From a candidate division WOR-3 bacterium (GTDB lineage: Bacteria; Hydrothermota; 32-111): a DNA stretch of 60,713 nt. The stretch spans positions 1-60,713 of the forward strand of contig JAUVJU010000001.1 of assembly GCA_030592285.1 (NCBI GenBank), given 5' to 3'. Every line of letters starts with the position of its first letter. Positions within the stretch are counted from its first letter, which is position 1. The notes beneath the pieces are model-generated. The model was not told the origin of the DNA, made no database searches, and saw nothing but the letters and a program-made list of their open reading frames with translations. A program made the position numbers and the translations under genes. Of this stretch, positions 4,415 through 8,274 are shown piece by piece.

Positions 4415-5818
4415 TTAAAAATACAATTCAAATTCATAAGGATGCGGTCTTTTATTTATACTTCTAATTTCATTTCTCTTATATTTTATATATGCCTTAA
4501 TAATATCGGCTGAGAATACATTGCCAATTGTTAGAAATTTATAATCATTTTCCAGAGCATCTAATGCCTCATCAAGAGATGAAGGGCAGCATCTAATATT
4601 ATTCTTTATTGAATTAGATGCTTTTTCCATATTCATATCATAGGGACCAAAATGATTGTTTTTAAGAGATATTTTATTTTTAATTCCATCAAGTCCGGCA
4701 AGTAGCATTGCTGAACAAGCAAGATATGGATTACTCGTTGCATCTGGCGGTCTGAATTCAATTCGTTTTTCATTCTTATCGGTTGCATATTTTGGGATTC
4801 TGATTGCAGATGAACGATTTGCCAAAGAATAAAACAATTTAACAGGTGCTTCAAATCCCGGAACCAGTCTCTTATATGAATTGGTTGATGGATTTGTAAA
4901 GGCAAGTAATGCCCGTCCATGCATTAATAGTCCTGCAATATAATATTCAGCATTTTTGGAAAGCCCTCCATAACCCCTTTTATCATAAAAAATATTTTTT
5001 CCCTTTTTAAATAAATGCTGATGAAAGTGCATGCCTGAGCCAGGCATATTATACATGGGTTTAGGCATAAATGTTGCAGACACATTATTATTAATTGCAA
5101 CTGTTTTTATTATATTTTTAATTGTTTGAGTATATTCAGCAGCATTTAGTATGGGATATCTGATTATTTCAATTTCATTCTGTCCGGCTCCAACTTCATG
5201 ATGATGATAAATAACCTCGATTCCCAGTGCCATAAGTATTTCCGAAATTTGATTTCTTATACTTAATGATTGGTCTTTAGGACATACAGAATGGTATCCA
5301 TTATGTTTACCTAAAAATTCTCCGGTATCATTAATATTCTCATCATAAGACATATTGCCTTCAAATAGATCAATCATTGCAAATGTAATATTTTTTTCGT
5401 TTTTCACTTCAACTCTGTCAAAAAGATAAAATTCAAATTCAGGTCCGAACATTGCTTTGTCGGCAATACCGGTTTTCTTCATATATTTTTCTGCTCTTCT
5501 TGTAATACTACGCGGATCTCTTTCATAATCATTTTTTGTATCTGCTTCTCTAATATCACAGAAAAAACAAATAGTTGAATCATCATTATAACTAATATGA
5601 ATGGTATTTAAATCGGGCAGCAAAATCATATCACCGCCTTCCAAACTTTTAAAACCAGCACAAGATGAAGAATCAAAGCCCACACCATGCTTCATAATAT
5701 GATCAAATCGTGCCTGCGGTAAAGTAAGCCTGTGGAGATTTCCCATTAGATCGGTAAATTTTAATTCAATCCATTTGTATTTCTTTATCTGTTTTTTATT
5801 AAATTTCTCAACTGTCAA
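4415..5818 (-). CDS. glnA: glutamine synthetase, type I-like
   Basis: Motifs GSGMHFHQHL and NPSTNSYKRLVPGFEAP, 467 aa. AGGAGG lies upstream of the start. Confidence 0.9.
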   Translation of the reverse strand: MTVEKFNKKQIKKYKWIELKFTDLMGNLHRLTLPQARFDHIMKHGVGFDSSSCAGFKSLEGGDMILLPDLNTIHISYNDDSTICFFCDIREADTKNDYERDPRSITRRAEKYMKKTGIADKAMFGPEFEFYLFDRVEVKNEKNITFAMIDLFEGNMSYDENINDTGEFLGKHNGYHSVCPKDQSLSIRNQISEILMALGIEVIYHHHEVGAGQNEIEIIRYPILNAAEYTQTIKNIIKTVAINNNVSATFMPKPMYNMPGSGMHFHQHLFKKGKNIFYDKRGYGGLSKNAEYYIAGLLMHGRALLAFTNPSTNSYKRLVPGFEAPVKLFYSLANRSSAIRIPKYATDKNEKRIEFRPPDATSNPYLACSAMLLAGLDGIKNKISLKNNHFGPYDMNMEKASNSIKNNIRCCPSSLDEALDALENDYKFLTIGNVFSADIIKAYIKYKRNEIRSINKRPHPYEFELYF

Positions 5819-5841: not shown

Positions 5842-5869
5842 ATTATATGAAAATGATGATTAAATTCAA
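5842..5869 (-). promoter_or_regulatory. candidate sigma-70 promoter for glnA (TTGAAT-16-TATAAT)
   Basis: The minus strand reads TTGAAT (5869-5864), a 16-nt spacer, then TATAAT (5847-5842), about 25 nt upstream of the glnA start. Confidence 0.4.
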
Positions 5870-5909
5870 GTCAGACGTTATCCGCTAGAAAGAAACATAA
5901 GGTCGGGCC

Positions 5910-5938
5910 TTGACATTTTGACAATTGTTTTATATACT
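5910..5938 (+). promoter_or_regulatory. candidate promoter for the RAYT gene; its -35 box lies inside the left inverted repeat
   Basis: TTGACA (5910-5915), 17-nt spacer, TATACT (5933-5938), followed by AGGAGG at 5951-5956. Confidence 0.4.
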
Positions 5939-5960
5939 ATATACAAAACAAGGAGGCGTT

Positions 5961-6848
5961 TTGGGTAAACCTAGAATCAAATTAACAAACCATTTCTATC
6001 ATGTAATGAACAGAGGTGATAAGGGAGAATATATCTTTGATGATGATCAAATGAAACGGTTGTTTTTAAAGGAATTGAGTTTCTTCAAGAATAAGTATCT
6101 TATTAAAATCTCAGCATTCTGTATTATGGACAATCATTTCCATTTGATTATCAAGGACAAAGAAGGTTGGATAAGTGAATTTATGCACGATTTAGAAACA
6201 GTATTTGCTATGAAATACCGAAAAGAAAAAGGTGGTAAAGGATATGTTTTTCAGAATCGTTTTAAATCACAGATAATACATTATGAAAAATATATGCAAA
6301 ATGCAATAATTTATGTTCTCAATAATCCATGCAGAAAACATCTTGTAAATGATCCTTTAGATTATCATTGGTCTAGTGCTGCTCTACATTTCAATAAAAG
6401 TGTAAACTTTTTAGACAAAAAAATCACCAAAGATTTGTTTGGTTCAAAAAAGAATTTTCTGTATTGTCTTAATAGTAAGATTGATATATCAAAGCATATC
6501 ATTGAAACACCTATTGGACAAATATTAGGTGATCAATGGTATGCAAGTAGTATTTTAGGTAGGTATAATAGACGAATTAAAAACTCCTACTCCACTGGTA
6601 AAAGAAAAGATGACAATGTGGACATATCTATACAATCTGCTTTAATGCTATTTGAATATAGAAAGAAAATATATCTTAAAGAAACTGATTTTGATTCAAA
6701 GTATGGTAGAATAATAAGAAATAAATTGTTGGTATTTCTAAAGGATGAGTGTCAAATGAGATATCCTGAAATTAAATGTGCTTATCCATTTTTTAATATG
6801 AAATATAATGCATTAGCAAAAACGTACTCCAGGTGTAAGCAAATATAG
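5961..6848 (+). CDS. REP-associated tyrosine transposase-like protein (IS200-like Y1 HUH domain with a C-terminal DnaA-C-like HTH region)
   Basis: HUH motif MDNHFHLII, catalytic-Tyr region IIYVLNNPCRKHLV and DYHWSS. I place the start at TTG 5961 after AGGAGG (giving MGKPRIKLTNHFYHVMNRG). The ORF-track start at 5925 would lie upstream of the predicted promoter -10 box. Confidence 0.8.
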   Translation: MGKPRIKLTNHFYHVMNRGDKGEYIFDDDQMKRLFLKELSFFKNKYLIKISAFCIMDNHFHLIIKDKEGWISEFMHDLETVFAMKYRKEKGGKGYVFQNRFKSQIIHYEKYMQNAIIYVLNNPCRKHLVNDPLDYHWSSAALHFNKSVNFLDKKITKDLFGSKKNFLYCLNSKIDISKHIIETPIGQILGDQWYASSILGRYNRRIKNSYSTGKRKDDNVDISIQSALMLFEYRKKIYLKETDFDSKYGRIIRNKLLVFLKDECQMRYPEIKCAYPFFNMKYNALAKTYSRCKQI

Positions 6849-6915
6849 TCGATTTTTTCTAAAAATGTCAAAATGTCAAGGCCCGACCTTATATCATATT
6901 TTATTCTTGATATTA

Positions 6916-8274
6916 TTAAAATCTATAATCAAGATCAATATGGATTCTACCTTCGGTTATCATAGATTTATAGGGAATACCATAAAATAATCCTAATTCT
7001 AATTTATTGTTTTTCATTATAAAACCGGTTCCATAGGAGAGAAGATATTTCTTAAAAAGATAGGGTAAGCCAGTATCAGAATAGAAACATATATCAGAAA
7101 ACAATAGTATTGATAGGTTTTTTGAAAAATTGTAACCAGGGTCAAAAGAAAGTTCAAGTAAATCAGAACATTTTAAAATATTTTCTCCATATCCCCTAAC
7201 ACTATTTGTCCCTCCTATTCCTGTTTTCATATATTCCATTACTGAATCAACAAAAATCAATGATACTTCCTTTATACGATTTCTGAAAAAGAAATTATAT
7301 TTATTTATAATATAATCAAAATCAATATCAATTTTGCTATAATCAATATCCCCAATAAAATATTCATATAGTGAATTAAATTCAAAATGTTCACTATTTA
7401 AATAATCAAAACTGGTGCCCACCTTTGTATATGAGATTTGTTCACTATTCCCCATTCTACCAAATATCCATTTTTTTCCTGCAATAAATCCAATCTTTGA
7501 TTTTTCATACAATATCTTTAATGCAATCTCACCATCAGCATTTGTAAATAATGAATCAATATCATTATAGCCCCCATTAAGTCCAATAGATAATGGAAAT
7601 CCAAAAATAAATGGGAAAGAAGCAAATAAATTAAGCATTGACATATTATTGGGACTTCTCTCATAATACAAATGATATTTTCTTCTATAGCCATGAGGAG
7701 AATTTATATTAAAATGTATAAATCCATAAATATCATTTTTAAGAAATCCTGTTGCAAAAACCCCTGATATATTTGAAACTGCATTATCATTAATATCGGA
7801 AATTATAATAACAGAATCATTATTATAAATAACAGGATAATAAAAAATATCATTTATTTCAATATTTAGAATTCTTCCCAAATCATTAATTGATCCTTTT
7901 ATTTTTGATTCCGAGTATGTATATCCTCTCAATTTTATAATACTATTTATGAGTGAGGTGCTTATATTTCCATTATTAACAATGCTTCTTATATAGTATT
8001 TTCCATTTTCAATAATATTCAAATATACAATTGTTTTATTACCAATTGTAATTGCAGAATCCGTAATGATTTCAGTAAATGGAAATCCATTTTCACTATA
8101 CAGAGATAGAATATCATTGATTGGCGTTTTTCTACCTTCAATTATTGAATCAATAGTATATGTTGAAATATAATTATTTCCATAAAATTTAAGTTCCACA
8201 TCTGCAAAAACAGATATGGAACTTAATATTATAACAATTAGTAGTATTTTACATTTTAGAAATAAGTTCATCAA
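6916..8274 (-). CDS. Omp85/BamA-TamA-like outer-membrane beta-barrel protein with a POTRA-like N-terminus
   Basis: Signal peptide, a POTRA-like segment (ENGFPFTEI...VYLNIIENGKYYIRSI), alternating beta-strand pattern, and a C-terminal ...DLDYRF ending in Phe. Confidence 0.55.
   Translation of the reverse strand: MMNLFLKCKILLIVIILSSISVFADVELKFYGNNYISTYTIDSIIEGRKTPINDILSLYSENGFPFTEIITDSAITIGNKTIVYLNIIENGKYYIRSIVNNGNISTSLINSIIKLRGYTYSESKIKGSINDLGRILNIEINDIFYYPVIYNNDSVIIISDINDNAVSNISGVFATGFLKNDIYGFIHFNINSPHGYRRKYHLYYERSPNNMSMLNLFASFPFIFGFPLSIGLNGGYNDIDSLFTNADGEIALKILYEKSKIGFIAGKKWIFGRMGNSEQISYTKVGTSFDYLNSEHFEFNSLYEYFIGDIDYSKIDIDFDYIINKYNFFFRNRIKEVSLIFVDSVMEYMKTGIGGTNSVRGYGENILKCSDLLELSFDPGYNFSKNLSILLFSDICFYSDTGLPYLFKKYLLSYGTGFIMKNNKLELGLFYGIPYKSMITEGRIHIDLDYRF

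Follow-up and report, generated by a model that had tools for sequence, protein, structure and literature searches.

What kind of element is formed by a nuclease gene and the long perfect inverted repeats on its two sides? The question is raised by positions 5890..6913 of a 60,713-nt stretch of DNA from a candidate division WOR-3 bacterium, called the window below. The window is contig C92 of a 2.14-Mb metagenome-assembled genome (MAG; G000) with 30% GC, and the sister genome is G001. An earlier note on the window had proposed a HUH tyrosine transposase of the kind associated with repetitive extragenic palindromes (REPs), that is, a REP-associated tyrosine transposase (RAYT). Our analysis makes it very probable that the feature is a TIRtron, a ~1-kb single-gene element in which the gene of a TIRYT, a RAYT-like HUH/Y1 nuclease-ligase for single-strand DNA with a C-terminal helix-turn-helix (HTH) like DnaA domain IV, lies between 27-nt terminal inverted repeats (TIRs).

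The names TIRtron and TIRYT were given in 2013 to RAYT-like genes that have TIRs, in place of REPs, on their flanks (Di Nocera, De Gregorio & Rocco, PMC3733652). The class is already known, and what is new is this member, with its genome-specific families, subtypes and turnover.

The enzyme and the repeats around it

The left arm, ATAAGGTCGGGCCTTGACATTTTGACA, lies at 5897-5923 and its exact reverse complement at 6866-6892, just as the earlier note had read them. The arms reach 30 nt with one mismatch (97% complementarity), and such an inverted repeat turned up in none of 100 dinucleotide-preserving shuffles of the window. The left TIR (5897..5923, plus strand) consists of a GC head, AAGGTCGGGCC (5899-5909), and the tandem TTGACAtt-TTGACA (5910-5923); the right TIR is 6866..6892 on the minus strand. 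The TIRYT gene between them (5961..6848, plus strand; 295 aa and a stop) contains all three of the motifs previously pointed out, NHFHLII, YVLNNPCRKHL and YHWSS. Its product matches Pfam Y1_Tnp (PF01797) at 30.1 bits against a cut-off of 23, which bears out the predicted transposase domain.

Residues ~1-147 form the HUH/Y1 nuclease core, with H59-F-H61, the catalytic Y118 and Y135-x-W-S-S139. In an alignment of 33 homologues, all of which match Y1_Tnp, the residues H59, H61, Y118 and Y135-x-W137-S138-S139 are invariant. Such invariance suggests that the nuclease should be active. A profile of the homologues searched against the PDB found TnpA-REP (4ER8) first (E=3e-4) and ISDra2 TnpA next, with Y118 aligned to the tyrosine of YIYINP in 4ER8. 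The AlphaFold model (pLDDT 85) gave the same best match in Foldseek (E=1.5e-7, TMt 0.68), and ISDra2 and IS608 TnpA were also found.

The last 77 residues (219-295; 6615..6845, plus strand) were modelled by AlphaFold2 as a four-helix bundle with a pLDDT of 94. The top four Foldseek matches of this HTH domain are all DnaA DNA-binding structures, 1J1V, 8BTG, 2HCB and 3PVP, with TM-scores of 0.57-0.69 over 75-79 columns, and region 4 of sigma factors comes next in the list. A PDB profile search with the C-terminal alignment returned no matches. One distant paralogue in the genome (C148) has weak HTH_23/HTH_28 matches in its sequence.

The single arms form no hairpin (dG 0 to -2 kcal/mol, no better than shuffles), and neither GTAG nor CGTC was found as a tag, with no GTAG within or adjoining the arms. 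Therefore, the repeats are TIRs and not REPs. The claim of a RAYT-like HUH/Y1 enzyme thus stands, its best PDB match being the E. coli TnpA-REP by sequence and fold, while the REP nature of the repeats does not. We also considered the GC head as a hairpin with a covarying stem (AAGGYC-G-GRCCTT variants), but in the commonest subtype, AGTCGGGGG, the pairing is lost, and the variants fold no better than shuffles.

The TIR core occurs in 51 copies in the 2.14-Mb MAG, compared with 1 for a reversed control. The earlier note had held that a 27-mer pair unique to this locus, with the same gene lacking repeats in relatives, would argue for a domesticated gene; the repeat belongs to a genome-wide family, so the note's own refutation test fails. 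The gene is not single-copy either, as three 1-kb units carry intact paralogous genes, in C92, C204 (87% aa identity) and C3 (74%). A suspected pseudogene in C3 was dismissed, as the apparent TGA is the copy's own stop codon two codons earlier and the copy is intact.

Besides the units, the core is found in 21 inverted doublets of ~165-175 bp that resemble miniature inverted-repeat transposable elements (MITEs) or REPINs. Their cores are 128-150 nt apart around a conserved 110-nt interior, and the predicted fold of a complete doublet is a single long hairpin (-30.8 kcal/mol, z = -8.1). All 21 doublets lie between genes; in 9, a stop codon is ≤12 nt from one end. There are also three single TIR copies, two of them <100 nt from a contig end. 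The doublets are not plain internal-deletion derivatives of the 1-kb unit, since they share with it only the TIRs, ~5 inner nt and the outer right-end extension.

These findings bear on the filing of the locus as a classical REPtron, in which a domesticated single-copy RAYT between REP hairpins maintains REP/REPIN populations as in Escherichia and Pseudomonas. TnpA-REP is indeed the closest solved structure, JGI names the homologues 'REP element-mobilizing transposase RayT', the doublets are REPIN-like, and the unit lies at the same locus in the sister species. We nevertheless consider this reading improbable. The arms are not palindromes and lack GTAG or CGTC, the protein has ~150 extra residues with an HTH, and one 2.1-Mb genome holds three intact copies and at least eight paralogues. 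With the NCBIfam RAYT equivalog NF047646 (REP_Tyr_transpos) the protein scores 74 bits, below the cut-off of 80, and its paralogues 57-66 bits. Moreover, the literature sets exactly such cases apart as TIRYT (PMC3733652).

Repeat families, relatives and turnover

The GC heads of the TTGACA family fall into three subtypes, (a) GGYCGGGCC, (b) RGYCGGGGG and (c) GCCCGGGGC. Both arms of an element mostly belong to the same subtype, with 1.96 mismatches within and 3.51 between elements (permutation p<1e-4). The gene copies in C92, C204 and C3 carry a, b and c, respectively. This sharing and the distribution over the gene copies fit a set of three master copies, each of which has non-autonomous doublets of its own.

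The same 1,024-bp unit is present at the unrelated loci of C92 and C204 (C204:8799-9822). The two copies form a mosaic, the first ~550 nt being 94-100% identical and the remainder 80-86%, and this step in identity indicates a probable gene conversion. The copy at the glnA locus of the sister genome has head subtype b like C204, not a like the window, which points to a possible gene conversion or replacement between copies.

Three side observations concern short repeats and database matches. In two tRNA genes (G000 C3:16732 and C88:658), the T-arm (GGTCGGGGGTTCAA...) begins with exactly the sequence of the TIR head GGTCGGGGGTT, possibly by coincidence. Another short repeat, ATATACYCGGGGGYTATCAKTCTTATCAGTTT, occurs at G000 C13:3023, C172:226 and C190:7302 and is unrelated to the TIR families. 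Rfam and the PLSDB plasmids gave no relevant match.

In addition to the three intact copies of 74-87% aa identity, the genome holds eight or more distant paralogues (27-38% identity), each between its own TIRs, and each of these TIRs is also dispersed. All the families have a common plan of a G-rich head followed by two tandem 8-9-mers. The TIR of C91 reads GGGGACGGAGT-TTGGATTT-TTGGATTT (16 copies) and that of C84 ...GG-ATGCAAAT-ATGCAAT (10 copies). In the C81 family, GGGGTCGGAGG is followed by TTGGAATT, TTGTAAAT or TTGCAATT, each twice (~14 copies), so that both 8-mers vary together. The others are TAGGGACGGTCG-TCCATTTTGTCCA of C148 (~30 copies), ...TTGAAAAAGTGGAAAAAGT of C147 (~29 copies) and ...GTGTGTTT-ATGTGTTT of C54/C9 (~5 copies). 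With the 51 TTGACA copies, this amounts to seven TIRYT/TIR families and ~150 TIRs in 2.14 Mb.

The layout of a gene between TIRs was seen in 11 of the 11 related WOR-3 loci examined, down to 33% protein identity, and a twelfth locus (G002:C5) was confirmed separately. In these relatives, the TIRs read GGGGACGG[TG]G and then two TGACA-containing 8-mers. The TIR motif has ≥2 copies in 13 of 30 relatives with the gene and in none of 11 without it (p=0.007). A tree that asked whether TGACA-type TIRs or the 8-mer type mark one protein clade had a poorly resolved backbone and supports neither answer.

Relatives number >575 among species-representative genomes. In other phyla, flanking inverted repeats were found for 48 of 71 complete relatives, 39 of which begin with GGGG[AT][CG], mostly GGGGTCAGGTC. 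In many of these cross-phyla TIRs, the last bases are a hexamer like TTGACA or TTGCAT, 17-38 nt 5′ of the start codon. Many homologues sit on assembled contigs about as long as a single unit (960-1,050 nt), as is expected if assemblies break at dispersed TIRs.

The conserved layout also allows a different origin of the doublets to be weighed, namely that they are MITEs of an unrelated DDE-type insertion sequence (IS), with the Y1 gene placed between two of them fortuitously or carried as a passenger. MITEs of DDE transposons have TIRs and fixed-length target-site duplications. The doublets are MITE-like in their TIRs and conserved 110-nt interior, but neither the three long units nor the aligned doublets showed a target-site duplication at their ends. 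Furthermore, TIR, gene and TIR recur at fixed distances in 12 WOR-3 loci and in the 48 of 71 relatives of other phyla, seven paralogues each have a matching TIR family of their own, and the motif is missing from all 11 relatives without the gene. We regard this origin as very remote.

Six doublet sites were compared with the sister genome; two are orthologous, three have no doublet there, and one alignment was too poor to call. Solo GC heads without TTGACA repeats (AAGTCGGGGGT, TAAGGTCAGGTCTTGC and GAGGTCGGGGTATAT) were noticed at G000 C127:627, G001:C42 (L052) and G001:C90 (L054). They lie where a paralogous or orthologous site holds a full doublet, that is, at two of the three doublet-free G001 sites and at C127:627 in the MAG. 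These solo heads could be targets or scars.

An accessory island of a related genus has co-oriented single TIRs (GGGGACGGTGCTTGACTTTTTGACATTTTT) in nearly every intergenic gap (L032, G013:C1:1280500-1292000; L034, G009:C3:272500-280500). The genes spaced by them include an AbiJ-like Abi protein, DUF2130, two AAA_14/DUF4143 ATPases and an LVIVD/T9SS protein. The content between the TIRs differs between G013 and G009, giving a cassette-like layout. The matched head subtypes, the solo heads at doublet-free sites and these single TIRs between accessory and defence genes hint that heads may serve as insertion targets or excision scars and that solo ends may shuffle gene cassettes.

Several results weigh against a TIRtron, some by bearing on mobility and others on the class features. 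The doublet-free sites in G001 are not seamless, holding unrelated sequence or solo heads, and therefore insertion and deletion are indistinguishable there. For the gene-carrying unit, the check for an empty site between glnA and the putative outer membrane protein (OMP) gene, which the earlier note had proposed, found no clean one, as the locus is occupied in G001 and more distant relatives differ in gene order. A candidate empty site in G002, G003 and G006 was discarded; there, a 31%-identical OMP homologue is convergent with glnA, so the junction is not comparable.

Pfam Bac_DnaA_C (PF08299) matched neither the protein, its 33 homologues nor any TIRYT in a six-frame search of the whole genome, the Foldseek E-values of the C-terminal domain are weak (0.3-2), and in hhalign with the DnaA tail of the same genome the expected helix is aligned, but at a probability of 0.8%. 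As the relationship is undetectable by sequence, the DnaA-like HTH of the earlier note holds for the modelled tail as a statement on fold only. The head of the window TIR, AAGGTCGG, fits the published TIR motif GGGGWSAS (PMC3733652) at only 5 of 8 positions, while the fit is 7/8 for GGGGACGG of the WOR-3 orthologues and 8/8 for GGGGTCAG in most of the 39 head-bearing loci of other phyla. Finally, the available text of the literature naming the class (PMC3733652, PMC6006769) contains no TIRYT biochemistry, so the site and strand of cleavage and the part played by the HTH are matters of inference.

Unit boundaries, predicted promoter and a possible mechanism

The whole TIRtron (5890..6913, plus strand; 1,024 bp) was delimited as the stretch common to the window, the C204 copy and the orthologous copy in G001. 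In these alignments, the homology begins at AAGAAACATAAGG and stops at TTCTTGATAT. Outside the right TIR, the unit includes an extension of 21 nt (ATATCATATTTTATTCTTGATAT; 6893..6913, plus strand), the first ~11 nt of which are also found at the 'A-end' of the short doublets. No clean target consensus emerged, and the left flanks TAGA, TATT and GTAT differ. No second open reading frame was found within the unit, and tnpB is absent.

The TIRs sit 37 nt 5′ of the start codon and 17 nt 3′ of the stop codon. The start at TTG 5961 is supported by the homologues, by the same TTG start in the two paralogous copies and by a ribosome-binding site, AAGGAGG (5950..5956, plus strand), which lies 4 nt 5′ of it and is kept in all copies. 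Upstream is a sigma-70-type promoter-like site (5910..5938, plus strand), with the -35 box TTGACA (5910-5915) in the left TIR, a 17-nt spacer and the -10 box TATACT (5933-5938), matching 11 of 12 consensus positions. At the same spacing, the -10 box is TATACT in C204, C3 and G001 and a perfect TATAAT in G002. Because this pair of boxes is conserved in five homologous units, the earlier proposal that the left repeat doubles as the -35 box of the gene is well supported for a predicted promoter.

A second promoter-like site points inward from the right TIR, TTGACA-18-TATATT (6842..6871, minus strand), antisense to the 3′ end of the gene; it matches 11 of 12 positions, as a consensus match only. 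Its TAnnTT is kept in the other two copies.

The unit lies next to glnA (4415-5818, minus strand), an assignment of the earlier note that Pfam confirms. The likely core promoter of glnA, TTGAAT-16-TATAAT (5842..5869, minus strand; 10 of 12 positions), is left intact 20 nt from the left boundary of the unit. The right end stops 2 nt short of the stop codon of the other neighbour (6916-8274, minus strand; 452 aa). This gene had been labelled Omp85-like, a label that the searches did not uphold, as it has no match in Pfam or NCBIfam; its homologues in other genera are just 31-32% identical (G002, G003 and G006), compared with 67-75% for glnA there.

In the sister genome, the locus of the unit is the same, OMP-unit-glnA-cmk. 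Three genomes of another genus have a 30%-identical TIRYT paralogue directly downstream of glnA on the same strand (G005:C63:11891-14356, G008:C56:11030-13478 and G010:C22:9868-11817), unlike the window unit, which is upstream of glnA. In the window, 44 of 47 long non-overlapping open reading frames are on the minus strand, and the TIRYT gene is among the three on the plus strand, rather than one of four as previously counted.

The promoter-like sites raise the alternative that the protein is mainly a host-domesticated DNA-binding regulator and that the TTGACA repeats are dispersed operator or promoter modules, now immobile (cf. Correia elements). Each repeat has two -35 hexamers, both TIRs present inward promoter-like sites, the tail is also similar in fold to sigma region 4 in complex with -35 DNA, and the unit is syntenic in the sister species. 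A purely regulatory role, however, does not go well with catalytic HUH and Tyr residues that are invariant in the 33 homologues, with units of the same boundaries at unrelated loci or with doublets whose presence varies between sister genomes. Paralogous families have non-promoter 8-mers, such as TTGGATTT and ATGCAAAT, and the doublets have no -10 box at the right spacing in the alignment read by eye. We judge such a regulator quite improbable and return to the TIRtron.

How might a TIRtron of this kind work? DnaA domain IV reads 9-mers, and the DnaA-IV-like tail may dock on the two tandem TTGACA 8-mers of each TIR. That the two half-sites are identical and vary together suggests that the same reader is present twice. 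Such docking would bring the HUH core near the GC head, where nicking and rejoining could proceed via Y118. The whole unit would then be moved, and doublets of the matching head type could be moved in trans, without target-site duplication.

The -35 box of the gene's predicted promoter lies in the left TIR, and we propose that the protein bound there would therefore repress its own gene. Autorepression is common for transposases with a promoter inside the TIR.

Tentatively, the WOR-3 genome may be seen as having seven orthogonal TIRYT/TIR pairs with a two-part address. A GGGG(A/T)CGG-like head would be meant for the HUH core, tandem 8-9-mers read by the HTH would decide which enzyme moves which repeats, and the TTGACA address would double as a -35 box. 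This generalization is a possibility that we put forward with considerable doubt. If true, it would mean built-in autorepression and ~50 portable -35 elements strewn through intergenic DNA.

The genome offers a compact natural test set, with seven cognate enzyme/TIR families, three close enzymes whose heads differ in step with their doublets, and presence or absence in a sister. The sequence read by the DnaA-like tail, the cutting site of the nuclease and the possible movement of doublets in trans all become addressable with it. A large share of the bacterial Y1 nucleases are TIRYTs. For annotation, the locus is to be labelled a TIRtron, not a RAYT/REP system or an IS of the IS200 family, and is otherwise ordinary.

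Comparison with known systems

Among HUH/Y1 elements, those of the IS200/IS605 group have subterminal imperfect hairpins and no TIRs, and their TnpA of ~130-150 aa has no HTH and is often paired with tnpB. The window unit resembles them (IS608 and ISDra2 TnpA) in the HUH/Y1 fold, in the lack of target-site duplication and in its asymmetric ends, with conserved sequence outside the repeat on one side. It differs in having TIRs, no arm hairpins and a 295-aa protein with an HTH, and in having no tnpB.

REPs are 20-40-nt imperfect palindromes that fold into hairpins and bear a GTAG tag, and the RAYT is typically one domesticated copy per genome. REPtrons, in which a RAYT or TnpA-REP goes with REPs and REPINs, were reportedly described by Nunvar in 2010, by Bertels and Rainey in 2011 and by Messing in 2012 (PDB 4ER8). 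The window unit has in common with them a homologous nuclease core, inverted copies of a dispersed repeat that flank the gene, doublets that fold into long hairpins and vertical inheritance at one locus between sister species. It differs in that its repeats are not self-complementary and lack GTAG, an extra HTH is present, the unit is multi-copy and the NCBIfam equivalog cut-off is not reached.

Judged by shared features, the TIRtron here appears to correspond to TnpA-Y1 subclass 2.1, whose tails are Bac_DnaA_C-, HTH_23- or HTH_28-like (Quentin et al. 2018, PMC6006769). A short serine motif after the catalytic tyrosine is described for subclasses 2.1, 2.2, 2.3 and 2.6 (PMC6006769), and it is present here shortly after Y118 (YxWSS), as in 2.1. 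Subclass 2.1 was found in ~15% of the surveyed strains (PMC6006769), and TIRYTs were called poorly productive in the published survey.

Relative to published TIRtrons, the head here has drifted from GGGGWSAS to AAGGTCGG, or GGGGACGG in the WOR-3 relatives. A paralogue-specific second module of tandem 8-9-mers is found here, of which the available text of PMC3733652 and PMC6006769 makes no mention. The TIR load, with seven families and ~150 copies, is unusually high for a genome of 2.14 Mb. Shared with them is a Y1 gene of the RAYT-like kind, which encodes ~300 aa including an HTH at the C-terminus and lies at short fixed distances between non-palindromic TIRs with a G-rich outer motif. TIRs occur elsewhere in the genome as singles, dimers and groups, as do the published families (PMC3733652), and several TIRYT genes, each with TIRs of its own, share one genome.

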